DNA of 64,000 nt from Eledone cirrhosa (lineage: Eukaryota): positions 351,540,001 to 351,604,000 of the forward strand of contig OZ024742.1 in the NCBI GenBank assembly GCA_964016885.1, in the 5' to 3' direction. The notes under the pieces were generated by a model. The model was given only the letters and a program-made list of their open reading frames with translations. It had not been told where the DNA came from and ran no database searches. This document shows positions 9,259-27,349 of the stretch, piece by piece; position 1 is the stretch's first letter; each line of letters starts with the position of its first letter. The position numbers and the translations under genes were made by a program.

Positions 9259-12008
9259 TGAGGAAACAACAAACAAGAAATATCAGAAATGAGGAAACAA
9301 CAAACAAGAAAGATCAGTACCTTGGTGGAAGAAACGACTGAATGGTCAAATCACGGAAATGAGAAATGTCAATGGAAAGCTTGAGTCACTACTGAATGGG
9401 ACACTAAAAGACATAGACACTAAAAATAGACTGGAAATAAAGTACAAAACTAGGAGGAAAAAGCTAAATATTATCATAGAGGAACTGAAGCAACCCATTG
9501 TAGTAAAGAGTGCAAAAATCAGGCGATACGAGAGCAGAGTCAGTTAATATAGACAGAACCGCATGTTTGACAACAATCAGAAGGTGTTGTTTGGACAGCT
9601 TGAAGGGAAAGAAAGTGGCAACGACTTGATCCCTGAGGCGGAACAAACTAAGACATTCTAGAGAGGAATATGGGAGCAAGATGTTAAACATAATGATCAG
9701 GCAGTGTGGATTGAGACAGTTCAAAAGGAGATTAGTGACCAGGCACACCAACAAACTGATTTGAGTATAACAGTTAAAACTCTCAAGGTGCAGGCCAAAT
9801 AACTAACCAACTGGAAATCACCAGGCCCAGATGGTGTGCAGGGGTATTGGATTAAACATGTAACATCCCTCCACCCGAAACTGACAACCATGTTTAATGA
9901 CTGCTTGATGTCAGGTGAGGTACAAGAGTGGTTGACAAAAGGTACCACAGTTCTGGTAATGAAAGACCAAATCAAGGGTAATGATGTTACCAACTATAGA
10001 CCTATCACATGTCTGTCCGTAATGTGGAAACTGTTGACAAGCATTGTGTCTGAGGAAATCTACCATCACCTCCCCACACACAACTTGTTACCGGACGAAC
10101 AGAAAGGATGCCGAAATAAGTCCCGTGGTACAAAGGACTAGCTACTTATTGATAAGATTATAATGAGGAATTGCAAGAGGAGACACACTGGTCTTGCCAT
10201 GTGATGGATAGACTACAAAAAGGCATTTGACATGGTGCCTCTTTCTTGGATCACCAAAAGCCTAGAGATCTTCAAGGTGGCAGATAACATCAGACAGTTG
10301 TTGAGCAAAAGTATGAAGTCCTAGAAAACAGAGTTAACATCAGCTGGAGAATCCTTGGGAGGCGTGAAGATCGAGAGAGGTATCTTCCAGGGAGATAGTC
10401 TGTCCCCTCTGTTGTTTGTCCTTGCCCTGATGCCTCTGACCATTATACTGCGAAAAGTGAGAGCAGGAAACAAGTTGGGAAAGGGAGAGCTTACCATCAA
10501 TCACCTCCTCTTCATAGACGATCTTAAGGTATTCTGGAAGAGTGAGGAGGAGTTGGATGTGCTCGTTGTCACTGTCCGTATTTTCAGCAATGATATATGT
10601 ATGCAATTTGGTATTAGTAAGTGTGGAGTCCTTGTGATGAAGAGGGGTAAATTGAGCAGAAGCAACGGAATCCAGGTACCAACAGGTGAGATGGTTAAGG
10701 AAATTGACACTGAAGAAGTATACAAGTATTTGGGTATTCTGGAGGCTGATGACATCAAGAACAAAAAAATGAAGGAATTGATAAGATCTGAATACATTCG
10801 GAGAGTAGGGAGCGTATTAAAGTCACATCTGAACAGTAGGAATGCCATACATGCAGTAAATTCCCGAGCTGTGTCTATTGTTAGATACAGTGCGGAAATT
10901 ATGAGATGGAATGTTGCTGACAAAAATAAATGGATAGGAAGACTAGGAAGCTATTGGCTATCTACAACATGTGCCACAAGAGGAGTGATGTCGATAGACT
11001 GTACTTAAGGAGATTTGTAGGTGGAAGAGGTCTTATCAGCATAGAGGACTGTGTTCAGATGGAGAAAAACAACCTACACAAATTCGTGACCGATAGTAAG
11101 GAGCCAATACTCAGAATTGTACTGAACTAGAGGACAATAGACCAGGGGATGTCCAAGGAGGAAATAACAACGAGGAGAAAGAGAAACCTTCATGAAAAAT
11201 CCCTTCATAGTACAATCTTTGAGAAAACTGAATTCAGAGATCAACAGACATGGAACTGGTTGAGAAGAGGAGACCTTACAAGGCTACAGAAGGAATGCTA
11301 ATGGCTGCGCAAGAGTAGGCACTCAAAAGAAGTGGCTGAAACACCATATTTACAAGGAGGAGGTTAGCCCACTGTGCAGGATCTGTGGAGAGAGAGAGGA
11401 GACTGTGGCTCAAATTGTATCCGAGTGTAAACACATAGCCCAGACTCACTATAAAGGCTGGAGACATGATGTGATGGACAGGATGATCCACTGGCACCTA
11501 TGCAAAGTAAACAATTTACCACATTCTGAGAAGTGGTATGAGCATAAGCCAGAGTTGGTGATAGAAAACGATCAGGTGAAGGTGCTGGGGGATTTTAGGA
11601 TACAGACGGACAAGAAAATGGAACACCATAGACCTTACCTGGTCGTTTTGGACAAGGAAAAAATATCGTGCCTGATTGTGGATGTGGCCTGCCCATTCGA
11701 CACGAGAGTGCAAGAGAAGGGGAGGGAGAAAATTAACCGATAACAGGACTTAAAGTGGGAGGTAAAAAGGATTTGGAAGTGCCATGAAGTGAAAGTGTCA
11801 TAGGCGCACTAGGTACTATCTCAAAAAGTTTCTAGGGATGGTTAAAGAAAATTGGCCCCGCCACGCTTTTTGGAACACTTCAAAAGGCATGCTTGCTGGG
11901 AACAGCAAGAACTCTCCGATATATCGTGAATATCTGAGGCTGCAGGTAGTGGCTTCATATTCATTTCAACAGACTTTCCAGTTAACTAACATCAATGACT
12001 GAGACTCA

Positions 12009-12010
<2 letters not shown>
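9258..12010 (+). mobile_element. 5'-truncated, degenerate R4/Dong-clade non-LTR retrotransposon (family 1)
   Basis: RT motifs NYRPITCLS, IDYKKAFD, GIFQGDSLSPLLF and HLLFIDDLK. C-terminal CRIC...ETVAQIVSEC, RHD and RPYLVV..CLIVDVACP (restriction-like endonuclease). Many stops. (TAA)n on both sides. Confidence 0.9.
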
Positions 12011-12046
<36 letters not shown>

Positions 12047-12309
12047 TTTCTTTATTAACCACAAGGGTTTACATAAAGTAGACATTAAGGACAGTGCAGG
12101 ACAATGCAGGACGGTACAAATGGGCATTTCTGCGTGTAAAAAAAAAAAAAAAACAGAGGATGTAACAAAAATAACAATGAAAATAACAATGAAAAATTCC
12201 CCAATAGGGGGGAGACTTCGGAGGGACATTTGTGGAGAAAGCCCAGTAAAAAGCCACAATGACCCTGACCACCAAGGCAAGTGCCCTCTCCCAGTTTTCC
12301 ACCTTTAGT

Positions 12310-15300
12310 TTACAGATATATACTCAGAGTCGGCCCATTCACTCGGGCCATTCTTGCTTCTCTCACCCATCTTTCAACAAAATGCTGGGAAGAGAGCACT
12401 TCCCTCTCTACTCTGATTTTCCTTTTCAAATGAAATTTGAAAAAGTCAATCAGAGCATCACCGAAGAGGTAAGTGCTCGTCTTCAGCCCTTTCAAACGTG
12501 TCCACCATACTATCTCTTTCGCCATGGCCACCAGACAGATAAAAACTGCCTGCCCTTCCCGGCTAAAGGAGGAGGGCGGGGCAATCCTCACGATAGACTC
12601 AGATGATAGCTGGATCCGTCCTAAACGCGACAGCAGGTGTTCGACATAAACCCACAAGTCAGCAATTTTCGGACACTGGACGAGTGCGTGCAGGACGGTT
12701 TCGTCGCCATGCGCGCATCTCGGACATGCCCGGCTGACGGCACCTCCATGCCTGTAGAGTTTATCCCGAACTGGCAAGGCTCCTCGGTAGCACTGCCAGG
12801 CCAGAGATTTCTGGAAGTTGTCCATAGGCCCTGGCCCGAAAGTTCTTCCGAAGAGATTGGCTAGTTGATTTTCGTCGACGCCTAGAGTTTCCCCAAGTAC
12901 GTCGTCGCTCTTCCCCTCCACTAATCCTCTATAGAACGCCGAGGTGGAGTTTCCACCGATCACATTGCCCGATTGGTCGAGGGCTGTGAGCGCCTGAAGA
13001 CATTCCAGTCTCCAGGCGCTCCCTCTCGGTCTTCGCTTGACCCAGGACTGCAGCTCCGTCAAGGAAACGAGCTGGGGAAAAACGCGTCTAGCAAACGGCG
13101 ACCACACCTGATCACCGTCGAGGAAGAGGTGGAGATGTCGTAGCCTGAGCGCGTGCCTGCGCATCATCAGCCACGGCATGCCCAGCCCTCCACGTAGCGG
13201 GTGTTGACAACAGATGGACCGCCTGACCATCGGAGCACGTCCCTTCCACAAAAAGCGAAAGAGCAAACGCTCCAGCGCAGTCAGGCGAGGCTTAGGACAA
13301 GGTACGACGGTTAGGCGGTAGCAGATGACAGACGCGATGTACGCGTTAGCCACCTCCGCTCGACCTTTCAGGGATAGCTTCCTCTCCGCCCATTTCTGGG
13401 TGAGAGAAGCCACCCTGCTCGTCACCTCGTCCCAGTTTTTGTCCGTCTGGAGGTCCGGACCGAACCAGACCCCTAGCAATTTAACCGGTCCGTCCGTCCA
13501 GCGCCCGACGACGCTGTTGGACGGCATGGACCTGCCTCTCCAGGTGCCGAGCTGCAGGCCCACTGACTTTTCCTGGTTGATCATTGCTCCTGTCACCGCT
13601 TCGTATTCTCTTAGTGTAGTGCCGATCGCCTCGATGTGTTTGGCGTTCGACACCACTACGGTGACATCGTCCGCATATGCTGACACGGATCTTCCGCATC
13701 CTAGTTCGCGCGGGACTCCCCTCAACGTCTCCAGTTTGTGCAGTAATGGCTCGAGCGTCAATACGTACAAGAGGGACGAGAGGGGACATCCTTGGCGGAC
13801 CGAGCGCATGATGTTGAACGGTTCCGACAGGTGACCGTTCACTCTCACCACAGAGCAGATGTCGCTGTGCATGGCAGCGATCCAGCCTCTGAAGACGGGC
13901 CCAAAGCCAGCCGCCCTCAGGACTGCCGCTAGGTAACGATGGTCGACCCTATCGAAAGCTTTCGACTGATCTAAATTGATCAAGGACCCACCCGTGCCAG
14001 GTTCCCTAGCTACCCTCTCTACGATGTATCGCATGAGGTGGAGGTTGTCGTGGATGGATCTGTCGGGAATGGCGCATGTCTGCGCCTCTCCCACCAGACC
14101 ACCAACGACAAGCGCCAACCTCTTTGCTAGCACCTTGGCCAAAATCTTAAACTCTGTGTTTAGCAGAGTTATGGGCCGGAAATTTTCTATGTTATCCCCC
14201 TTGTTCGGATCCTTTCTCAGCAGTGCCACCGCTCCTCGGCTCACAGAACTGGGAATTCTCCCGTTCTGTTGCCAGTTGCAGTAGACGTCCGCCAAGAGGC
14301 CTCCGAACAAGTCTGGCATCTGTACGTAAAGTTCATAGGGCAGACCATCCAAACCAGGCGATTTACCCCTTGTGCAGCCAGTCATTGCCTCCCTTACTTC
14401 AGCGGCTGTTATCGGCTTTTCGCAACACTTCGCCTCAGTGGCCGAGAGCCGCGGCAGTCCGTCGAGGTAGACACTAAAGTCCATCCCTCTACCCGGCCCA
14501 CCGCTGCCCCCGAACAGCTGAGCGAAGTGTCGCTGAAAAGCTTCACACATTTGCCCGGGATCGAGTAGCATGCGCCCGTCGTGGTCCACCAAAGAGCGGA
14601 TCGTGGCTTTGTTGCCACGACGCGCCTCCGCCACTCGGGCCCATTGCACGGCTTTCGTCCCCTCGTGTCTGAGAGCACGCACCCTTGCTCTGACAACGCA
14701 GCCTTCGTGCTTTGCATTGAAGAATTGGTCAAGGGCCAATTTCGCCGCAAGCACGTCGGTCGCAATGCCTTTGCTAAGCGCCTCGTCTAATTTTCTAACT
14801 AGTTCTCCCTCTGCTCTATTTTTCTCTATTGCTAAAGCCTTACTAAACCTAATCGATTCTATTCTAATCGCTCTTTTCAGAGCAAACCACCACTTGTTGT
14901 TGACGATGGCCCCCGTCAACGCCCGCTTAACTAGTTCGCTAATCCGGTCTCTGTAGGCCTTGCGCGCTGGTAAGGACGCGTTTAGCTTCCAGTAGCCGGG
15001 TCCTCGTCTATGAAGCCTATCTAAGTCAAGCACACAGATCACGAATTTGTGGTCCGTGTAGCTGACTATCTTGAATTGTGGACAGCCTATGCTAGACCTA
15101 TCTATTTCCCTACAAAATACTCTATCTAGATATGATCTGGATGACCCTATGCGGTTTGTCCAAGTCCACATTGGCACATTCGGGAAATCCAATCGGTACC
15201 TGTCAGACAGTTCAAAACGCCTGAGCAGGTTGGTGAGGCTCTTGCACCCTCCACCCCTATCCGCTAATCCCACACAGTCCCAGCGTGCATCTAAGATCCC

Positions 15301-15729
15301 GTTCCAGTCGCCCACTAACACTAAAGAGCGGGACGTTCCAAGAAAGGTCTCCAGACGCCGGAAGAAATCAGGCCGCCCTGCTCCTGTCGGGGCATAGACG
15401 GCCACTAGCCTGAAAGCTTGCCCGTCTCCGCTGGTCACGTCCAGCACCACCAGCTTACCCTCTGGGTCCAGGAAGATGGCCCGTATGGCGAGATCCAAAC
15501 CTCTCCGAAAAAGCACAGCAACTCCTCCACCGGATCCAGGACGGCTGGGAGATGCGTACACATCGAAGCCGCCGAAGATCGGTGCGAAGGCCCGTGCTTC
15601 GGAGATTCTGGTCTCGCTGATGGCCACTACATCTATGTTTAGTGACCTGAGGTCGTTGAGCAGGTGACCCTGCTTCCATGACGACCCCAAGCCACGCGCA
15701 TTTATGCTGCCTATTCTGAGTGAGGTCAT
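12310..15729 (-). CDS. Tx1-like ORF2: APE endonuclease, reverse transcriptase and C-terminal CCHC finger (1139 aa)
   Basis: GSINARG, ISETR, VAVYAP, VGDWN, YLDRVF and TDH (APE); FRPITLLN, LDQSKAFDRV, QGCPLS and YADD (RT); CPRC..ETVLHALVQC. Confidence 0.95.
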   Translation of the reverse strand: MTSLRIGSINARGLGSSWKQGHLLNDLRSLNIDVVAISETRISEARAFAPIFGGFDVYASPSRPGSGGGVAVLFRRGLDLAIRAIFLDPEGKLVVLDVTSGDGQAFRLVAVYAPTGAGRPDFFRRLETFLGTSRSLVLVGDWNGILDARWDCVGLADRGGGCKSLTNLLRRFELSDRYRLDFPNVPMWTWTNRIGSSRSYLDRVFCREIDRSSIGCPQFKIVSYTDHKFVICVLDLDRLHRRGPGYWKLNASLPARKAYRDRISELVKRALTGAIVNNKWWFALKRAIRIESIRFSKALAIEKNRAEGELVRKLDEALSKGIATDVLAAKLALDQFFNAKHEGCVVRARVRALRHEGTKAVQWARVAEARRGNKATIRSLVDHDGRMLLDPGQMCEAFQRHFAQLFGGSGGPGRGMDFSVYLDGLPRLSATEAKCCEKPITAAEVREAMTGCTRGKSPGLDGLPYELYVQMPDLFGGLLADVYCNWQQNGRIPSSVSRGAVALLRKDPNKGDNIENFRPITLLNTEFKILAKVLAKRLALVVGGLVGEAQTCAIPDRSIHDNLHLMRYIVERVAREPGTGGSLINLDQSKAFDRVDHRYLAAVLRAAGFGPVFRGWIAAMHSDICSVVRVNGHLSEPFNIMRSVRQGCPLSSLLYVLTLEPLLHKLETLRGVPRELGCGRSVSAYADDVTVVVSNAKHIEAIGTTLREYEAVTGAMINQEKSVGLQLGTWRGRSMPSNSVVGRWTDGPVKLLGVWFGPDLQTDKNWDEVTSRVASLTQKWAERKLSLKGRAEVANAYIASVICYRLTVVPCPKPRLTALERLLFRFLWKGRAPMVRRSICCQHPLRGGLGMPWLMMRRHALRLRHLHLFLDGDQVWSPFARRVFPQLVSLTELQSWVKRRPRGSAWRLECLQALTALDQSGNVIGGNSTSAFYRGLVEGKSDDVLGETLGVDENQLANLFGRTFGPGPMDNFQKSLAWQCYRGALPVRDKLYRHGGAVSRACPRCAHGDETVLHALVQCPKIADLWVYVEHLLSRLGRIQLSSESIVRIAPPSSFSREGQAVFICLVAMAKEIVWWTRLKGLKTSTYLFGDALIDFFKFHLKRKIRVEREVLSSQHFVERWVREARMARVNGPTLSIYL

Positions 15730-15764
15730 GTTTAAAATAGAGTGGAAAAGATGGGAAAGACCAC

Positions 15765-17858
15765 TTACCGTACTTTTGGTAGAGGAGGGATGGTTTTTAC
15801 ATCCCTTTTCACTTGATCGTCTGGTGAAGGGACCGTTGAATGGTCCCTTCGGCTGGTCGTCGGCTCTTCTAAGAGAATGTCTGAGTATACTCTTCGATTG
15901 ATGGTTCCTCCTAGGTCCCTGAAATCACCAACTGCGTTGGGGAATTTCGTTTTAATATTTGTGTATTGTTTCTGTGCTATTTTTAGCAGTCTTATGTTAG
16001 TTGGCGTTTTGATTGGTGCTGGTATTATGTAGTCCTGTTGTGAAATGTCTGTGTGTTCAATTATGTAAGTCATTAGTTTCTTGTTGTGTGTATTTATTGC
16101 CGTGCATTTGTTTTTCTGGGGGTGGGGTGTGGTTCTGCTATTTTCTTGTCGTTGTTGCTGGGTGTGTGTGTTTTGTTGTTGTGTTTGCGATGTTGGTGCT
16201 TGTGGTGGTGGTGTTGAAGGTGTTGTTGGCGGTGGGGTTGTCGCCGGTGGTGATGGTGGCGCTAGTGTGGGTGGTGATGGTGTTGGTGTTGTTGCTGCTG
16301 TGGGTCTCTTTGCAGTAGACTTTACCCTTTTCTCATTTCTTTCCTCCCTTTTCAAAGGCGACGATGCGCTGCTTCTGCGTTTGTGCCTTCTTGCGACCTT
16401 TTGCCATCCCTCTCCCACCTCACACTCCATGTCTGATTCTGTAAGGTCGGGGAGGGGTACCAGCTCCACTCTTTCACTTGTTGTTGTTGGTGATGTTTGC
16501 ACTGGAGTCTCTGTTGCAGCTGCATTTGGTATTGCTGTTGTTGTTGTTAATATTTCCACTGCTGCTGCTGTCTTTGATTTCCGTGGAGTGGGTATGGGTG
16601 CCACGGACCTATCGTTCCTGGTTGCCGCTTGTCCTGTTGCTGGTAGCCGTGGAGCCGGATTCGGAAGGAGGGGGGTTTTCTCCTTTCTCAGGGTCTTCTC
16701 GTTGCGGAAGGCCCTGAGGTGAGTCTTCGATCCACAGCGAAAGCATTTCGGGCGTTTGCCCTCAACACTTATGGGCAGTTGAGTGCCGTTATCGAAGTCT
16801 ATCACATCCGGGATAGCTTCGATGCACTCCTGGTTGGTTTGGATTAGCATCTCAATGGAGGAGCCGACCCAATCTTCTCTTACTTTTTTCTGTACTTGCA
16901 GTACAGTTGTTTTGTCCTCGATTCCGACGAGGACAGACGCGGCCAGCCAAGAAGGGGTCATTCCGGGGGGGACGTGGGTCAGTTTGACCCTCACAATTTT
17001 TTGCCCGCAGTAGGAGGGCACCAACACCATTTCCTCGCTCCTTAGGGTCACTACTGATTGGGCCTTTGCCTCCTGGGGTGTGGCAAAAAGTACGTCTACG
17101 GTGGCGTATTTTTTGCCTCGGGTGATGTGCGTTTTCCTCTGCCACACAGACCCCAAGGCTTTTTGTATTTGGGCCTCTGTGGCTCTTTCCACCCTACGGG
17201 ATTTTGTACTTACTGTACGGTACGTGACCGTACAGTGCTCTTGGGTTTCGAAAAAATTTTTCGCTGCCTTGCAGATTGCTCGGTGTCCGTTCTTTGTCAC
17301 CATCTTCTTCGCTTCCTCTAATTCCTCATTTGTTATGAGGATTGTCTCCAAGTTTTTCGCAATACCTGCAAATGAGATTGGTTTTTCTCTGCTGTTGTTG
17401 TTGTCGTCAGAGCTGCTGGTACTTTTGTTGCTGCAGGTACTACGACTACTGCCTCCGCCGCTGTTGCTGTGGTTGTTGTTGGTGTTGCTGCTGCTAATGC
17501 TGTTGTTGTTTATGATGCTGGTGATGCTGTTGCGGCTGCTACTGTTGTTTTCATTGTCACTGTTGCTGTTGTTATTACGGCTGCTACTGCTATTATTCCT
17601 GACGTCAGACGAATGAACTGGGTTTTCGTATTTCCCGCACACCTGTTTCGTCGCTGTCGTCGTCGTCGTGGAGAAACCTTGCAGGCTTTGCACGAGACTT
17701 TTCTTTTCTTTCGTCGCTTGCGAAAGAGAAGGGAGGGAGAGAGACACATTTAAAGAAGGGAGGGAGAGAGACAATCTTCTCTCTGCTGTAGTGATGATTG
17801 AGGAAGAAGAAGACGGAATGAGTGGGAGTGACGTATGAAATTTCTTTTTGGTAGCCAT
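15765..17858 (-). CDS. Tx1-like ORF1 nucleic-acid-binding protein with degenerate zinc knuckle
   Basis: Long open frame ending 35 nt upstream of ORF2; first ATG at 17858 (MATKKK). Contains CFRCGSKTHLRAFR, plus N/S-rich and P/T-rich tracts. Confidence 0.85.
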   Translation of the reverse strand: MATKKKFHTSLPLIPSSSSSIITTAERRLSLSLPSLNVSLSLPSLSQATKEKKSLVQSLQGFSTTTTTATKQVCGKYENPVHSSDVRNNSSSSRNNNSNSDNENNSSSRNSITSIINNNSISSSNTNNNHSNSGGGSSRSTCSNKSTSSSDDNNNSREKPISFAGIAKNLETILITNEELEEAKKMVTKNGHRAICKAAKNFFETQEHCTVTYRTVSTKSRRVERATEAQIQKALGSVWQRKTHITRGKKYATVDVLFATPQEAKAQSVVTLRSEEMVLVPSYCGQKIVRVKLTHVPPGMTPSWLAASVLVGIEDKTTVLQVQKKVREDWVGSSIEMLIQTNQECIEAIPDVIDFDNGTQLPISVEGKRPKCFRCGSKTHLRAFRNEKTLRKEKTPLLPNPAPRLPATGQAATRNDRSVAPIPTPRKSKTAAAVEILTTTTAIPNAAATETPVQTSPTTTSERVELVPLPDLTESDMECEVGEGWQKVARRHKRRSSASSPLKREERNEKRVKSTAKRPTAATTPTPSPPTLAPPSPPATTPPPTTPSTPPPQAPTSQTQQQNTHTQQQRQENSRTTPHPQKNKCTAINTHNKKLMTYIIEHTDISQQDYIIPAPIKTPTNIRLLKIAQKQYTNIKTKFPNAVGDFRDLGGTINRRVYSDILLEEPTTSRRDHSTVPSPDDQVKRDVKTIPPLPKVR

Positions 17859-19084
17859 GTTTTTTTGTTTAAAATGAAATTTTGGGTACAAAACCACAAT
17901 AACTGGTTATTTAACCCCGAAGGGCCAAATAACGGACAGAAAGACCCCTCTCACGAGGAGGAGGGTGTCTTTATCAACAATTTGGTTCAAGTTTTAAACA
18001 ATTTACAATTGTTTTAACGGTTAAAAATTACTATACCTTACAGAGCCGAGCCTCCGTCAACCATGGCATTCAATAATAATAATAATAATAATAATAAGAA
18101 GAAGAAGAAGAAGGGAAGAAGACGCACGTGGTGGTAGAAGGTCATGAAATCGCTCCGGTAAGATTTTGATTTTTAACATATTTAAATAAATTGTGAAATA
18201 ACAATTCTTAGTACAAATGATGCATAAATCACCGAATCAAGTCACATAAAAATTCGGATCTATAATATATTGTTATAACGCTCAAATATTCAATGTTGTA
18301 TTATATATTTTATATTAAAAAAAGAAAATGGTTATACATGGAAGAACACCCCCGCTGTCTACACCAAAAACTAGATACACCTCCTACCCCATCACCCCGC
18401 TGTGTACACTAAATATAAATAACAGCCAGATAACGGCAATTTCACCACCACCACCACCAATCCCAGCATCATAATAATAATTACTATTATTATTGTCTCA
18501 AGTTTTAACAAAATGTTTAATTCCAATATTAAGGGAATATGTAAACACATATATTAAACATACGCGACACAAACGCATAGATACTACAGATCAAACAAAA
18601 CTAGTCTATTCGACATAACTCAGTAACGACAACGCCACCGCCGCCACCACTTCATCCATCATTGCTATCACTATCCCATCACCGCCGCCACCACTCCTTC
18701 ATTGCTACCACCTCTATTTCCCGGTTAACTTAAGAAAGGGGAAGGTGGCGGTATCACTAGATAAGGGAGAGGCTAGCAAAATATATAAATAGATTGACTT
18801 AGTGACCCGGCCACCGGCCAAAGGTCAACAACTATGGCACTGTTGGCTCCCCCTTCCCCACCAACAATATAAAAAGCCCCAGCACCACCACCGACATAGC
18901 CAACAACAATAACAGGCAACTTCAGCAAAAAGTATATTATATTATTGTAATGCACTGGGTAATTGCTGGCCTTGTGCCTGGAGTGGATACAATTATTAAT
19001 AATTTCATTCTTAAGCCACGCAATGCTCACATTAAGGAACCCCTCATGATAATAACAATTAAAAAAAACAACAAAAAAGAAAAC

Positions 19085-22000
19085 CCCGTGACCAAGAAAT
19101 ACCGGGATGGTGGCCGGCCGGGAATAGCCGTGTCTCTAGGGGAGAACGACCCCTCTTGTCTTGGTTGACACTCGTTCTAGAAGTGGTAACACGAAATGAT
19201 TACACTTGGCGGATAAGGATAAAACTCGACAAAATAAAGTAAATGTCTAATGATAAAATCTCATACCGGATCGGCCGTCACCCAGGTAAAAAAGGGCCGC
19301 GTCCCTCAGAGAGGAACCAGACTGGGGTCGAAAATCAGCTAATGGTTCAAACCTTCCCATCACTTCGGAGCTGGAGACCTCCCATAACCGGAATACTCCT
19401 ACTGTTGGCCCTCCATGCTCACCACCATGAAATCCAAAGAAAAAGAGAGAAAAATGCTCAAGGGAAGATAATAAAGAAGTCCTTGAGGCTTTCTACACTG
19501 CCATGTACAACCCATCAAATATATCGAATACAGAACAGACATATATCAACTGGAAAATGAAACATCCCGAAAACAGAGGCTATATTGACAGTAACAAACT
19601 AGCCAATATACGAAGAAATATTGTAAAAAAAAATTACTAACTGATATAGAAATTGATCAGATCAAGCTATTAGCACAAAGTCAGCGAAGGGAAAATGAAA
19701 CATGTGTCAGTGAAAACGAGGTAAATTGTAACACTTCGAATCCCAGGGTTGGGGTGGAATCACTGGCAACAGAACAAATTAAAGAAAGGATCGAAAAAGT
19801 GGAGAGAGTTCATGCTCAAGATGAAACTCCAAATGAAAATAATGACATCGTAAATGATAAATAAATGAATGAGAATGAACTTGCCAACTTGAAGGATGAA
19901 ATTATGATCGAATGATGAAAATGAAAAGATCCAGAACTCCAAACAGAACCAAAAGATAATACACAAGACTACCATAATTCTCAAAAACATTATCATCACA
20001 AACAAACTAAACATTACTGATTTAAACCATCTATATTATGCATCGGCTAAAGTCACCACTCACTTATGTGGAGTGAAGATGAAAAAACAAAGGAATTCCA
20101 ACAAGAAATCTACTTGGCAAGAGAACATCAATCGCCAAATAAACCTTCTCCGATCTGATATAGACATTTTAACAAACTATAAAGTAGGTGAACATGTTAA
20201 ACAAACCAAACTTAGAAAATTGAAAAGAAAGTACAGTATAAAATCAACAAGTGACATAGACATGCTGATGGAAATAATCAAGCAAAAAGTGTCGGCCAAA
20301 GCTGCTCGTATAAGGCGCTTTGAAAAACGATCTAGATTCTATAAGGACAATATGTTCAAAAACAACCAAAGAAACGTCTACAGAAAAATTGGTATGTCAT
20401 CAATAACTGCTAAATTAATACCACCCACCAAGGAGGAAGTGCAAGAATTCTGGGAAAAGATCTGGGCCGAAGAAAAAGTTCATAACATACATCCCCCATG
20501 GATAGACAGACAAATGAAAGATACAGCTCACCTTGAAGAACAAATATGGGAAAATATAACAGTTGAACAGTTGCGCTTGGCTCTAAGAAAAACCAGCAAA
20601 TAGAAATCCCCAGGAAAAGACAAAGTACAACATTTTTAGGATAAATGCCTTCACAGAGACTCATGAGCTGTTAGCCCAAATTTACAATGAAATAGTTAAG
20701 GAGCCAGAAAAGATAACATCATGGATAGTTAACGGCATTACATTCCTGCTTCCGAAGAATGATGAGACAAACAGTCCAAAAATTACAGACCGATAACTTG
20801 CTTGACTACAATGTATACAATTTTAACATCAGTCCTAACTGAATATATATATCACCACCTGATAACAAATGACCTATTTCCCATTGAGCAGAAAGGGTGT
20901 AAACGAGGCTCATATGGCTGTAAGGATCAGCTTCTGGTTAACAAAATGATACTGGAAGATTGTCATAATAGACACACAAATCTATCAATTGCTTGGATAG
21001 ATTATAAAAAAGCATTCGATAGTTTGCCACACAGTTGGATTGAAAAATGTTTGGAGATTTTCAAAATATCTCCCGTTGTCAGGAGGTTTTTGTCATTCAG
21101 TATGAAGACATGGAAAACGACACTCCTTTTGAATAGTGAAACAAAATCACTGGAAGCTGGAGAAGTTAATATTAATTGAGGAATTATTAAGGGTGACTCT
21201 TTATCACCGCTTTTTTTCTGCATCGCACTTATACCATTAAGTAAAATCGTCAATGAAACAAAACATGGATATAAAGTCTATGACAAAACCATTAATCACT
21301 TGTTCTACATGGATGACCTGAAACTATTTGCAAAAAATGATGAACAATTGCAAGGGCTATTATCCAATGTGGAGCAGTTCAGTGATGACATTAAAATGGA
21401 GTTTGGGCTAGATAAATGCGCCAAAGCATAGTTCACCAGAGGAAAGCTTCTGAAGAGTTCGGACATTAATCTTGATCGGGGGAATGTGATAAGAGAACTT
21501 GATCAAGAAAAAACTTACACATATCTAGGTGTTTGTGAAGGAGACGGAATCAAGCACTCGACAATGAGGGAAAGGATAAGGAAGGAATGTTACTGTAGAG
21601 TAAGAGCAAACTTAAGAACGGAATTGAATCCAAGGAATAGGATCGATGCCATAAACACGCTTGCCATACCAGTAGTAACCTACAGTTACAATGTCATCAA
21701 CTGGTAAAGCACAGAGATCCGTAGGCTCGATACAACAATTCTAAAATTCTTAACCATGCACAGAATGCATCACCCTAAGGAAGATACAGATATAATATAT
21801 CTCCCTAGGTAAGAAGGAGGACGTGGGTTAATCCAGTTAGACATTTCGTTGAAAACTGCAACAATTGGATTATCTACATATCTAAGGGAATCACATGATT
21901 GGATGATCAAACTCGTTTTCAAACACGAAAGCATCAAAAGATCATATTCCATTACAAAAGATGCACAAAGATACAGTAATGGACTACACATTCCAGAAGT

Positions 22001-23000
22001 CCCATTTACTGCTGAAATGGAAAACACAGAAAAAGCAAAGCAGGTAAAAGTAACTTCCAAGAAAGAACTGCTACAGAAACTGGCTAAGAAATGGCAAGAA
22101 AAAGCCGCTGTATGGAAAATACCCAGAGCGAGCTAACAATCCTGATGTTGACAAAACTTTAACCCATCAGTTGTTGGCATCCTCTGGACTGAAATCGGAG
22201 ACTGAAGGACTGATTATATCAGCACAAGATCAGTGTCTGCCAACAAAATATTACCAAGCCAACATAATACAAAAAGGATGCAGCCCATTATGCCGTGTAT
22301 GCAAACAACAACCAGAGACCATTGACCATATAATTTCAATGTGCAGTTCTATAGCTCCAACCGAAAACCTAAACAGGCATGACAGAGCTGCACAATACAT
22401 TCATTGGATAATGTGTAAGCATTTTGACCTGCCCCATCAAAAGAATTGGTGGGAGCATCAACCACCTCCCATACTTGAAAAAGATCACATCTCAATCTTG
22501 TGGAACTTTAGCATCCAAACAGACCGAACAATAGATGCAAATAGACCTGATATAATATTGAAGGACTTTAAAAAGAGGGTATGCCTGCTAATTGATGTGT
22601 CCGTTCCAATAGACAAGAATGTATCTATAAAAACATTTGAAAAATTGAGCAAGTATAAGGACATGGAGATAGAAATTGGAAAAATGTGGAAATTGAGAAC
22701 TATAACAATACCAGTGGTTGTAGGCGTTCTGGGAATGATGCCTAAGGGGTCCAATGATTACTTATCGCAAATCCCAGTAAACCCGCGTATAGAAGAAATA
22801 CAAAAGATAGTACTAATGGGAACTGCCCATATACTAAAGAAGATTCTGTCAATATATGTACATCACAAGTCTAAACACTAAAAATGCATGTGTGAGTATG
22901 TATGTTCTTTCTTGAACATGGCGGACATTGTTGTCTCTTGAGGTCACTGGTTGTGACTTGGTGATAACTCGTATGAACATAAAGCAAGATAAATGCAACT

Positions 23001-23001
<1 letters not shown>
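19085..23001 (+). mobile_element. Near full-length degenerate R4/Dong-clade element (family 2)
   Basis: R4-type N-terminus (IDSNKLANIRRNIVKKKLLT); RT WIDYKKAFDS, GDSLSPLFFC and HLFYMDDLK; CRVC..DHIISMC, RHD and RPDIILKD..LIDV. Stops and frameshifts. Followed by (TAA)n from 23002. Confidence 0.9.
19090..19193 (+). ncRNA. Candidate decayed HDV-like ribozyme at the 5' end of the Dong element
   Basis: P1 GACCAA/TTGGTT with G1-U wobble, P3 GAC/GTC, L3 CCCTCTT, P4 CACT/AGTG, P2 CGTG/CACG. J4/2 GTAA lacks the catalytic C. Confidence 0.4.
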
Positions 23002-23035
<34 letters not shown>

Positions 23036-23041
<6 letters not shown>

Positions 23042-23500: not shown

Positions 23501-23503
<3 letters not shown>

Positions 23504-23800
23504 TAACCGATACCAGGACTTAAAGTGTGAGGTAAAAAGGATTTGGAACTGCCATGAAGTCAAAGTGATCCCGACTGTCATAGTCGCACTAGGGACTATC
23601 TCAAAAGGTTTCCAGGGATTGTGAAAGAAAATTGGCCCCTTCACGGTTTTGGAACGCTTCAAAAGGCATGCTTTCTGGGAACAGCAAGAACCCTCCGATA
23701 CGTCCTGAATATCTGAGGCTGCAGGTAGTGGCTTGATATTCATTTCAACAAACTTTCCTGTTAACTAACATCAATGACTGAGACTCAAAGAGTAAAACAA
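23501..23800 (+). mobile_element. 3' fragment of Dong family 1
   Basis: Closely matches 11730-12010. Confidence 0.9.
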
Positions 23801-23825: not shown

Positions 23826-24701
23826 ACTTTCTTTAGTAACCACAAGGGTTTACATAAAGTAGACATTAAGGATAGGACATGACAATACAGGACGGTAAAA
23901 ATGGGCATTTCTGCGTGTAAAAAACAAAAACAGAGGATGTAATAAAAAAAACAATGAAAAATACCCTAATAGTGGGGAGACTTCGGTCGGACATTTGTGG
24001 AGAAAGCCCAATAAAAGGCCACAGTGACCCTGACCACAAGGGCAAGTGCCCTCTCCCAGTTTTCCACCTTTAATTCACAGACACATACTCAGATTAGGCC
24101 CATTCACTCGGGCCATTCTTGCTTCTCTCACCCATCTTTCAACAACATGCTGGGAAGAGAGCACTTCCTTCTGTACCCTGATTTTCCTTTTCAAATGAAA
24201 TTTGAAAAAGTTAATCAGGGCATCACCGAAGAGGTAAATGATCGTCTTCAGCCCTTTCAAACGTTTCCACCATACTATCTCATTCGCCATGGCCACCAGA
24301 CAGATAAAAACTGCCTGCCCTTCCCGGCTAAAGGAGGAGGGCGGGGCAATCCTCACGATAGACTCAGATGATAGCTGGATCCGTCCTAAACGCGACAGCA
24401 GGTGTTCGACATAAACCCACAAGTCAGCAATTTTCGGACACTGGACGAGTGCGTGCAGGACGGTTTCGTCGCCATGCGCGCATCTCGGACATGCCCGGCT
24501 GACGGCACCTCCATGCCTGTAGAGTTTATCCCGAACTGGCAAGGCTCCTCGGTAGCACTGCCAGGCCAGGGATTTCTAGAAGTTGTCCATAGGCCCCGGC
24601 CCGAAAGTCCTTCCGAAGAGATTGGCTAGTTGATTTTCGTCGAGGCCTAGAGTTTCCCCAAGTACGTCGTCGCTCTTCCCCTCCACTAATCCTCTATAGA
24701 A
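23826..24701 (-). mobile_element. 5'-truncated Tx1-like copy, same subfamily as 12044-18071
   Basis: Closely matches 12044-12938; the ORF at 24075-24542 corresponds to the ORF2 C-terminus. Confidence 0.92.
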
Positions 24702-25683
24702 CTCTTTATTGGCCACAAGGGCTGACATCAAGTAAAACATTACTGTCGGCACAGGACGGTACGATGTGGGTTTTGTGCGTGTAAATATTTTTATTATTTA
24801 TACAAGAAAAAGAAAAAAAAAGGACATAGAAACATATATATATATATATATAGAATAAAAATGAAAATTGAAACAATGAAAAATTCCCCAATAGGGGGGA
24901 AAACTCCGAGGGTTACTCGTGGCGAAAACCAGGGCAAGCACCCTCTCTCAATGTTTCCATCTCTCAAACTACAGACGTATATTCAGAGTGGTGCCGTTCA
25001 CTCGGACCATTCTCGCTACATTCACCCACCTTTCAACAAACTTGCTACAAAAAAACACTTGCCTCTCCACCCTGATTTTCCTCTTCAAGTGAAACTTGAA
25101 AAAGTTGATTAGGGATTCGCCGAAGAGGAAAGTGTCTGTCTTTAACCCTTTTAACCTTGTCAACCACACAATCTCTTTCGCCATGGCCACCAGGCAGATG
25201 AAAACAGCCTGCCCTTCCTCCTCGAAAGAAGACGGCGAGATCATCTTCACAATGGACTCAGTCGACAACCGGATCAGTCCCACACGCGACAGCAACTGTT
25301 CGACATAGCTCCACAAGTCAGCAATGTTCGGGCACTGAACGAGTGCGTGCACGACGGCTTCGTCGCTCTACGCGCATCTCGGACAGGCTCGGCTGACGGC
25401 ACTTCCGTGCCTGTAGCGCTTATCTCGAACCGGCAGCTCTCCCCGGTAGCACTGCCAGGCCAGGGATCTTTGGAAGCTATCCAGGGGCCCCGGGCTGAAA
25501 GTTCTCCGGAAGAGAGCAAACAGCTGATCTTCTTCGACGCCCAGGATCTCTCCGAGAATGTCGTCTTCTTCCTCTCCACTAGTCCTCTATAGAACGCCGA
25601 GGTGGATGTTCCACCGATACTGGTGCACAGCTCGGAGAGGGCTATCCCTCGCTCTTTTTCTGACCCGGGACTGCAGCTCCGTT
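24702..25683 (-). mobile_element. 5'-truncated Tx1-like copy, second subfamily
   Basis: HALVQCPNIADLW...FFKFHLKRKIRVE; tail ccttgtggccAATAAAga. Confidence 0.9.
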
Positions 25684-25685
25684 AA

Positions 25686-25877
25686 ATAATTGTTTCTACT
25701 TTTGGCACAAGGCCAGCAATTACTCAGTGCATTACTGGTACTTTATTTTATCTACTCCGTAAGGATGAAAGGCAAAGTTAACCTAGGATGGATTTGAACT
25801 CAGAATGGCAAGGGCCGTAACTCTATGCGTCAAAACATGGCGTCCGACCCTCTACCGATACTGCCAATCCACCGCCA
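25686..25877 (-). mobile_element. tRNA-derived SINE (Meta-domain-like family)
   Basis: Homologous to 8040-8222; adjoins a TAA-rich tract. Confidence 0.85.
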
Positions 25878-25896
25878 TTAATAATACTAATAATAA

Positions 25897-26662
25897 TGAT
25901 TTCATTTATTAATCACAAGGGCCGACATGTAGGGGACAATACAAAGACAGGGACAGTGGGGGATTACAATAAGGTTGAGTAAAAGTGCACAATGGCAAGA
26001 CTAATTTAAAAAATGAAGATGTAAGAATATAAAATAAACTATGCATAAATATAACAAAATTACAAAATAAATTCCCCGATATGGGGTGGACGACCCTGGG
26101 GTGACTCTGGTACCGCACCAATCCTGAACCACCCTTCGCTTCTAGGGCACACAGGGAGAGCACCCCTCTACTCAAGTTAGCTAGCCTATAGGCGCATGGT
26201 CAGTGTAGGCCCGTTCACACGAGCCATTCTCGCCACAATCATCCACCTTCTAGCAAATGTACAGGGGGGCAGCACTTCTCTCTCCACCCTCACCTTCCTG
26301 TCCATGTGAAACTTGAAGAAGTTGATGAGGGATTGGCCGAAGAGAAAAGTGTTTTCTTATACTTTTAACCTGGTCCACCATATAACCTCCTTCGTAACTG
26401 CCACCAGATAGAGGAACATTTCCTGCTCTTCCTGACCTAAGGAAGGCGGCGTGTCGATCTTCAATATGGACTCGACCGATAGCCGGATTCGTTCCACACG
26501 CGACAGTAGCTGTTCGACATAACACCACAAGTCAGTAATGCACGGACATTGGACAAGTGCGTGCAAAACGCTTTCGTCGCTCTGTGCGCATCTTGGGCAG
26601 GTCCGTCTGACAGCACTTCCGTGTCTGCAGAGTTTAACCCGAACCGGCAGTGCCCCCGGTAG
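25897..26662 (-). mobile_element. 5'-truncated Tx1-like copy, third subfamily
   Basis: GALPVRVKL..CPRCAQSDESVLHALVQC; tail ggcccttgtgattAATAAAtgaaatca(TTA)n. Confidence 0.88.
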
Positions 26663-27344
26663 CATTGATAAGGAGAAGGCTAGCTCACTGTGTAGGATAT
26701 GTGGAGAGAGAGAGTGTGGGAGGGGGAGAGAGAGAGGAGACTGTAGCACACATCGTATTTGAGTGTAAAGATTCGAGTGCCCAGACACAATATAAAGGCT
26801 GGGGACATGATATAATAGGAAAGGTGATTAACTGGCATTTATGCAAACTAAGCAATTTACCACATATTGAGAAGTGGTATGAGCATAGACCAGAGTCGGT
26901 GATAGAAAACGATCAAGTGAAGGTGCTATGGGATTCCAGGATACAGAAATTAGAACAATGACTTGAAGGTTTTTGACAAGGAAAAAAGAGAGAGCATGAT
27001 TGTAATGTAGCCTGCTCCTTTAATACGAGAGTGCAAGAAAAGCATAAGGAGAAAATTAACCCGTACCAGGATTTAAAGTAGGAGTTTACAAATATTTGGG
27101 ACTGTCTTGAGATCAACATCGTCCCGATTGTAATAGGAGCACTACGTACTATCTCAAAGAGTTTTCACGGATGGTTAGGGATCATTAGTCCATCCCCCTT
27201 TTTGGGAACACCTCAAAAGACATGCTTGCTGGAAACAGCAAGAACCCTCTGATACGTCCGGAATATCTGAGACTGCAGGTAGCGGCTTGATTTTCATTTG
27301 AACAAACTTTCTTGTTAAATTATATTAATGACTTAGACCCAAAG
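26663..27344 (+). mobile_element. 3' fragment of Dong family 1 (more diverged)
   Basis: CRICGER..ETVAHIVFEC..KWYEHRPESVIENDQVKVLWD; matches ~11352-12010. Confidence 0.88.
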
Positions 27345-27349
27345 AATAA

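Follow-up and report, generated by a model that had tools for sequence, protein, structure and literature searches.

The window analyzed here, a 64,000-nucleotide stretch of the Eledone cirrhosa genome (assembly GCA_964016885.1, contig OZ024742.1, positions 351,540,001 to 351,604,000), carries on its minus strand a full-length long interspersed nuclear element (LINE) of the L1/Tx1 type, with a trinucleotide microsatellite on either side (Table 1). In the sense of the element the 5' array is (ATT)8.7 and the 3' array is (ATT)12, which correspond to (AAT)8.7 and (AAT)12 on the plus strand. No poly(A) was found at the 3' end of the element, where AATAAA is followed by GAAATC and then directly by (ATT)12. 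A preliminary description of the locus had reported the repeat at both ends, written as (TTA)n, and the missing poly(A), and both were observed here. Each array also adjoins an opposite-strand LINE that we take to be Dong/R4-like from its reverse transcriptase (RT) and C-terminal motifs, rather than from a named reference. From the genome-wide evidence below, it is likely that the window element represents a young, high-copy LINE family of the L1/Tx1 group that occupies (ATT)n arrays in one orientation and register and targets them.

Both open reading frames (ORFs) of the window copy are open and are separated by 35 bp. In ORF2, an apurinic/apyrimidinic endonuclease-like (APE) domain, an RT domain, and a C-terminal zinc finger matched the Pfam families Exo_endo_phos (E-value 5e-14), RVT_1 (1e-28), and zf-RVT (2e-7), respectively, all above the cut-offs. 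Residues 5-854 of ORF2 align with human L1 ORF2p (E-value 1e-52), where the APE motifs INARG, SET, YAP, GDWN, YLD, and TDH and the RT motifs QGCPLS and YADD are in register, in agreement with the intact reading frames and catalytic motifs of the preliminary description. ORF1 comprises a low-complexity N-terminus, a central region resembling RNA-binding clusters of the CCHC/ZCCHC3 type, a zinc knuckle, and a Pro/Thr-rich tail, and it had no Pfam match above the cut-off. A weak MBD match at residues 227-269 (window about 17052-17180; E-value 0.004-0.017), present in both ORF1 types described below, fell short of the cut-off and was disregarded. The stop codon of ORF1 lies inside a GTAAGT hexamer that resembles a splice donor (window 15763-15768, minus strand).

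The earlier view of the element as intact and as a candidate for activity was borne out for the reading frames and for the family, while the window copy itself departs from it. The last Cys of the ORF1 zinc knuckle is replaced by Arg in this copy only (Cys385Arg, position 16706). That position is Cys in 44 of the 45 other full-length copies, with a gap in the remaining one, and the base at 16706 also differed from the window copy in all four public sequencing runs compared. With this private change, the window copy is a poor active candidate and may be impaired, so the candidate for activity is the family rather than the window copy.

Ends of the family were counted across the 3.0-Gb genome by exact-pattern matches. 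The 3'-terminal 22-mer was found in 3,756 copies and two one-base variants of it in 5,499 copies, and the 5' 22-mer was found in 1,655 copies. An in-register (ATT)4 directly preceded 1,596 of the 1,655 exact 5' ends; (ATT)6 preceded 1,509 of them and (ATT)11 preceded 467. That other full-length copies might lack the 5' repeat had been named beforehand as a ground for rejecting the preliminary description, and this was not the case. Similarly, (ATT)4 directly followed 2,869 of the 3,756 exact 3' ends, and none of the 3,756 was followed by an array in the opposite orientation. Perfect (ATT/AAT) runs of at least four units covered only 0.4% of 168,767 background bases, which excludes chance as the source of the association. 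The 3' flank began with ATT at 94 of 100 loci, even where the remainder was (ACT)n, (CTT)n, or other sequence. Both joints, GAAATC followed by ATT and ATT followed by GAATG, fall at the one T/A step that the repeat has on either strand. The median run among 79 full-length copies was eight units upstream and 15 downstream, and (CTT)n often lay beyond the ATT run and touched the joint at a few loci (e.g., L074 and L293).

Full-length RNA could itself carry repeats, and the truncated copies are therefore the real test of targeting. At least three ATT units were found at the 5' joint of 16 of 41 truncated copies, distributed as 13 of the 21 under 700 bp versus three of the 20 longer ones (p = 0.004), compared with the 0.4% background coverage given above. 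Short 5'-truncated copies cannot carry a 5' leader, so the ATT upstream of them was not brought by the element. The other 25 truncated copies, including 17 of the 20 that are at least 700 bp long, had no ATT run at the 5' joint; several of them join Dong-like coding sequence directly, and they look like target deletions or post-insertion deletions. Among the first 100 loci, 12 copies of a sister subfamily (described below), the rearranged or full-length L083, L133, L143, and L147, and the diverged L067, L082, and L120 were excluded from the truncated count. Among L271-L320, copies reaching a sequence edge, full-length sister copies, and the duplicates L298 (of L297) and L311 (of L304) were excluded. 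Five loci (L278, L299, L309, L312, and L317) were set aside for internal breaks or unclear joints, and the ATT run of L064 was set by eye.

These joints bear on an alternative in which the family has no real target and produces both the (ATT)n tail and the leader itself, so that it only appears to be embedded in arrays. The RNA could supply both runs, and the truncated copies without 5' ATT, together with those 3' flanks that contain a single ATT unit, would agree with such an origin. In contrast, the ATT upstream of the 13 short truncated copies could not have been carried by them, and arrays are present at Dong-like joints where the window family is absent. Additionally, in 64 of the 79 full-length copies the far side of the 5' run is bordered directly by a Dong-like element in antisense or a Tx-like element in the same sense, which random landing would not yield. 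The data largely refute an origin without targeting, which is highly improbable, and targeting of (ATT)n itself is very likely.

The arrays are shared with other elements and are used repeatedly. Beyond the 5' run of the 79 full-length copies, 34 had an antisense Dong-like element, 30 had a same-sense Tx-like tail, and 11 matched no Dong-like or Tx-like reference used; of the 3' flanks, 21 were antisense Dong-like and 38 matched no such reference. Truncated Dong-like copies adjoined (TAA)n without a Tx-like head at five of 30 loci (L242, L246, L265, L266, and L268), which indicates that the arrays likely pre-exist and speaks against an origin of the joints between Dong-like coding sequence and (ATT)n from the window family. 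All 13 tandem neighbor pairs compared differed, with 26-186 substitutions per pair, and hence represent separate insertions rather than recent recombination duplicates; the same arrays have received insertions repeatedly. A short GC-rich head recurs after (ATT)n arrays, in the sense of the LINE, in the 3' flanks of L078, L096, L101, L104, L107, and L149; it is possibly a short interspersed nuclear element using the same target.

The frequent company of Dong-like elements raises the question of whether the family really aims at Dong-like elements or their surroundings, with (ATT)n incidental, as for Tx1L within Tx1D. Besides the antisense Dong-like flanks counted above, many of the 30 Dong-like tails examined adjoin a Tx-like 3' end, and transposons are known targets of some Tx1 families (PMC4494074). 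The joint, in contrast, always lies inside the repeat whatever part of the Dong-like element lies beyond, and the unmatched 5' and 3' flanks also speak against a Dong-directed target. Co-occupancy is accounted for by the TAA target of Dong itself (PMC3812793). Such a target is very unlikely.

The upstream run of full-length copies has a sharp floor of about six units: the per-unit loss was 1-3% up to that point and 21% past unit six. At least six upstream units were found in eight of the 16 array-flanked truncated copies versus 1,509 of the 1,596 full-length copies (p about 1e-6). This floor favors an RNA-borne (AUU)n leader on full-length copies, in addition to a short target duplication. In truncated copies, the duplications that could be read measured 16-17 bp (L302), about 11-14 bp (L070), and 7-8 bp (L297). 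In the full-length L193, a 12-bp duplication precedes three ATT units that its 3' flank lacks, and duplications could also be read in the full-length L169 and L173. In a set of copies with interrupted 5' runs, four of 12 informative copies matched their 3' flank versus 29 of 372 control pairs (p = 0.014). Of 31 full-length copies whose 3' flank is interrupted, 24 lacked a matching duplication. The flanks gave no support to one long duplication of uniform length, as most interrupted 5' flanks were unmirrored at the 3' end: 32 of 40 loci could be evaluated, and the first test gave three matches. This comparison is weak, since many of the interruptions probably arose after insertion.

The same floor could arise with real targeting and no RNA leader, either from a long staggered duplication of 18-21 bp or from an endonuclease that needs six upstream units, with truncated joints losing part of the run by microhomology. 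The flanks of L169 and L166 are compatible with a duplication of 30 bp and those of L173 with one of 18 bp without extra units, nicks at T/A alone would yield the fixed register at both ends, and SART1 needs a minimum repeat number (PMC7265360). The readable duplications of 7-17 bp in truncated copies are shorter than this leaderless explanation calls for, the three extra units of L193 lie outside its duplication, and pure 5' runs accompany early-interrupted 3' flanks in seven full-length copies (L065, L081, L099, L123, L130, L131, and L240). The difference in six-unit runs between truncated and full-length copies also speaks against it. An insertion process without a leader is a serious candidate, held at somewhat under an even chance. 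The chance that full-length copies do carry an RNA-borne (AUU)n leader is close to evenly balanced, given the copies that lack a readable duplication and the small and older truncated sample.

A further reading, held tentatively and a little short of evenly balanced as a whole, is that this APE-type family is still mobile, with hundreds of copies that remain intact, that it targets (ATT)n, and that its full-length RNA bears a short leader of (AUU)n; each full-length insertion would then add about six units, and stacks would grow by self-renewal. Targeted insertion itself, which is more firmly held than the leader, would likely begin with the APE endonuclease nicking (AAT)n at the T/A step of that strand. 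Cleavage of RNA normally occurs 10-30 nt past AAUAAA. In this family AAUAAA is only 6 nt from the end of the element, so the RNA would likely be cut within the downstream repeat, with GAAAUC(AUU)k as its terminus ahead of any poly(A). The (AUU)k end could then anneal to the nicked (AAT)n strand, from which reverse transcription would be primed; no poly(A) would thus be copied, and the 3' flanks that begin with ATT fit such priming. A short duplication, of 7-17 bp where readable, would result from a second nick at the T/A step of the opposite strand, and full-length insertions would add several ATT units at the 5' joint, probably from the repeat leader of the RNA.

Several points weigh against targeted insertion by these steps, besides the truncated joints without ATT and the full-length copies without a matching duplication. 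We infer the nick rather than observe it, and the RNA end and transposition likewise. No empty-site joint was found in the contigs of the four public runs, where repeat junctions were skipped. The truncated copies are few and comparatively old (about 77-100% identity), so their difference from the full-length copies may be exaggerated by decay of the repeats, and most samples were the first matches on contig C1. In addition, an isolated ATT within (ACT)n, (CTT)n, or ATTATA sequence serves as the site of a few copies (L070, L081, and L297); the specificity for (ATT)n is strong but not absolute.

Coding capacity and divergence suggest that the family moved recently. Both ORFs were open in 14 of the 45 full-length copies obtained from the first 100 3'-end matches on contig C1, and in 16 of the 34 copies with a recognizable 3' end among 40 loci from the 5' list. 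Extrapolating from the 40 loci of the 5' list to the 1,655 heads gives roughly 600-700 copies with both ORFs open. The nearest sampled copy to the window element, L088, differs by 0.37%, and many of the 45 full-length copies lie within 1% of their nearest neighbor, so that the preliminary description of the element as young is upheld. Changes common to more than one of 25 open ORF2 copies were mostly synonymous (33 versus 14 non-synonymous), which implies several selected source lineages, and the family has, judging from sequence, probably moved recently. On contig C4 (G000:C4:357938532-358053745), 13 heads at multiples of about 6.06 kb share an identical interrupted spacer, and they probably form a long tandem array that was amplified rather than inserted singly.

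The sister subfamily (loci including L068, L079, L087, L132, L151, L301, L303, and L306) is 92-97% identical in ORF2 and the 3' UTR, from about element position 2264, while it has another 5' UTR and an ORF1 of just 42% identity. Its heads likewise follow (ATT)n in the same register. The subfamily looks like a swap of the 5' half with the target unchanged, which would be consistent with ORF2 setting the target. More distant ORF2 relatives in public assemblies (P0002-P0012) share 39-44% identity, and no distant relatives with flanks were found in metagenome contigs.

The ORF2 order of N-terminal APE, RT, and C-terminal zinc finger is that of the L1 group, as are the two ORFs, the absence of long terminal repeats, the 5'-truncated copies, and the short target duplications. 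Among solved structures L1 ORF2p was the closest (E-value 1e-52, against 2e-21 for R2). Membership in the Tx1 clade is assigned provisionally from architecture and habit rather than from a tree with named Tx1 families, and no named Tx1 protein was found among the 43 homologues, their cluster members, or the Atlas names. ORF1 proteins of the Tx1 clade have RNA-binding domains and a CX2CX4HX4C knuckle. Of 45 copies, 31 showed this knuckle pattern and 30 kept its final Cys, which is Arg in the window copy; the sister subfamily has the pattern as well. The Atlas neighbors of ORF1 were CCHC/ZCCHC3-RBD clusters (0.90-0.93), to be taken as a lead only. Target preference has been defined by more than 20% of flanks being of one sequence type (PMC4494074), a level exceeded in this family by the heads (1,596 of 1,655), the tails (2,869 of 3,756), and the truncated joints (16 of 41).

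Known targets in the Tx1 clade include U2, a DNA transposon, (TC)n for Kibi, (TTC)n for Koshi, and (TTCC)n/(TTTC)n for the crocodilian Tx1-1_Crp group (PMC4494074, PMC3812793). Like Kibi, Koshi, and Tx1-1_Crp, the window family is an APE-RT LINE family of the L1/Tx1 group with a microsatellite as its specific insertion site, and it differs from them in its (ATT)n target and more than 1,600 full-length heads; the comparison is by description and implies no relatedness. Its joints lie in (ATT)n rather than in (TC)n or (TTC)n, and it was not identified as Kibi or Koshi. In the relevant part of one survey, TAA repeats are listed as a target only for Dong elements, namely Bombyx Dong, DongAg, and DongBg (PMC3812793). 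The window family targets the same repeat and shares arrays with Dong-like elements, while it lies in the opposite orientation and has two ORFs with an N-terminal APE, which rules out that it is itself a Dong element. Dong belongs to the R4 clade, whose members have a single ORF and a C-terminal restriction-like endonuclease (RLE).

Two LINEs on one repeat in opposite orientations are also known from telomeric (TTAGG)n, where SART inserts at T/A and TRAS in the other orientation (PMC7265360). SART resembles the window family in its use of the T/A step, and it needs several units; in contrast, SART1 and TRAS1 are telomeric and SART ends in poly(A), whereas the window family occupies an interstitial microsatellite, has no poly(A), and is partnered by elements with a different endonuclease type. 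The L1 endonuclease nicks 5'-TTTT/AA, and that of Tx1L is sequence-specific (PMC1950540). Human LINE-1 (PDB 8UW3/8SXT) shares the APE-RT-zinc finger ORF2, and nicking at T/A would explain both junction registers; unlike the window family, whose ORF1 has a CCHC knuckle, it is promiscuous and poly(A)-tailed. A 2026 annotation of Octopus vulgaris reported 13 recently active L1-Tx1 families (421 insertions) and five Dong-R4 families (1,129 insertions), and targets are undiscussed in its main text, from which the word "target" is absent (PMC13282606). Those L1-Tx1 families are alike to the window family by class only, and no identity is implied.

No Tx1 family that targets TAA or ATT was found in the open literature, while Repbase may list one, and the available sections of PMC3747384 and PMC5753468 added nothing on an (ATT)n target. 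The new specificity proposed in the preliminary description therefore stands as far as the open literature goes. Targeting is backed by the truncated copies and the strict polarity; (TAA)n is already known as a target of Dong (PMC3812793), and so are Tx1 elements that target microsatellites. What appears new, relative to the open literature, is (ATT)n as the target of a Tx1-type LINE.

In the window, the element belongs to a stacked cluster between 9 and 27.5 kb, in which at least four plus-strand Dong/R4-like pieces (9260-12008, 18098-23037, 23503-23790, and 26830-27345) alternate with four minus-strand L1/Tx1-like pieces.

Table 1. Features of the L1/Tx1-type LINE and of its neighbors in the window (positions count from the first nucleotide of the window; UTR, untranslated region)
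Feature	Position	Strand	Remarks
Full-length L1/Tx1-type LINE	12045..18071	minus	6,027 bp; both ends defined by genome-wide matches
5' array (ATT)8.7	18072..18097	minus	8 perfect units beside the head, then (CTT)n, then opposite-strand Dong-like head
5' UTR	17859..18071	minus	213 bp; starts with GAATG right after ...ATT; register fixed across the family
ORF1	15765..17858	minus	697 aa; ATG 17858, stop 15765
ORF1 zinc knuckle CX2CX4HX4C	16704..16745	minus	last Cys is Arg in the window copy only
ORF2	12310..15729	minus	1139 aa; ATG 15729, stop 12310
APE endonuclease	15100..15666	minus	Pfam Exo_endo_phos, ORF2 aa 22-210
Reverse transcriptase	13468..14199	minus	Pfam RVT_1, ORF2 aa 511-754; YADD intact
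C-terminal zinc finger	12652..12810	minus	zf-RVT, ORF2 aa 974-1026
3' UTR	12045..12309	minus	internal T run; AATAAA (12056-12051), then GAAATC
3' array (ATT)12	12009..12044	minus	doubles as (TAA)n tail of the upstream Dong-like element
Degenerate Dong/R4-like LINE	9260..12008	plus	RT fragment and RLE-like C-terminus
Second Dong/R4-like LINE	18098..23037	plus	(TAA)12 tail at 23002-23037
5'-truncated copy of the window family	23828..24702	minus	about 93%; 3' end abuts a degenerate AAT array
Two truncated copies from related but more distant families	24703..26667	minus	77% and 73%; second ends on an AAT array

The mechanism of microsatellite targeting by Tx1 elements has been described as poorly understood (PMC3812793). 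With more than 1,600 full-length heads and both ORFs open in about 40% of the sampled copies, a working element of this family is likely to be easy to clone, and it would add a harmless-site target to the sequence-specific insertion systems. The repeat shared with opposite-facing Dong-like elements offers a natural comparison of two endonuclease types acting on opposite strands. If the RNA leader is real, the landing pad would be rebuilt for both the window family and the opposite-facing Dong elements, and LINE stacks anchored in a microsatellite would renew themselves. Such a leader would explain how the arrays are renewed despite repeated insertion, and how LINEs come to be stacked at (ATT)n in the Eledone cirrhosa genome.

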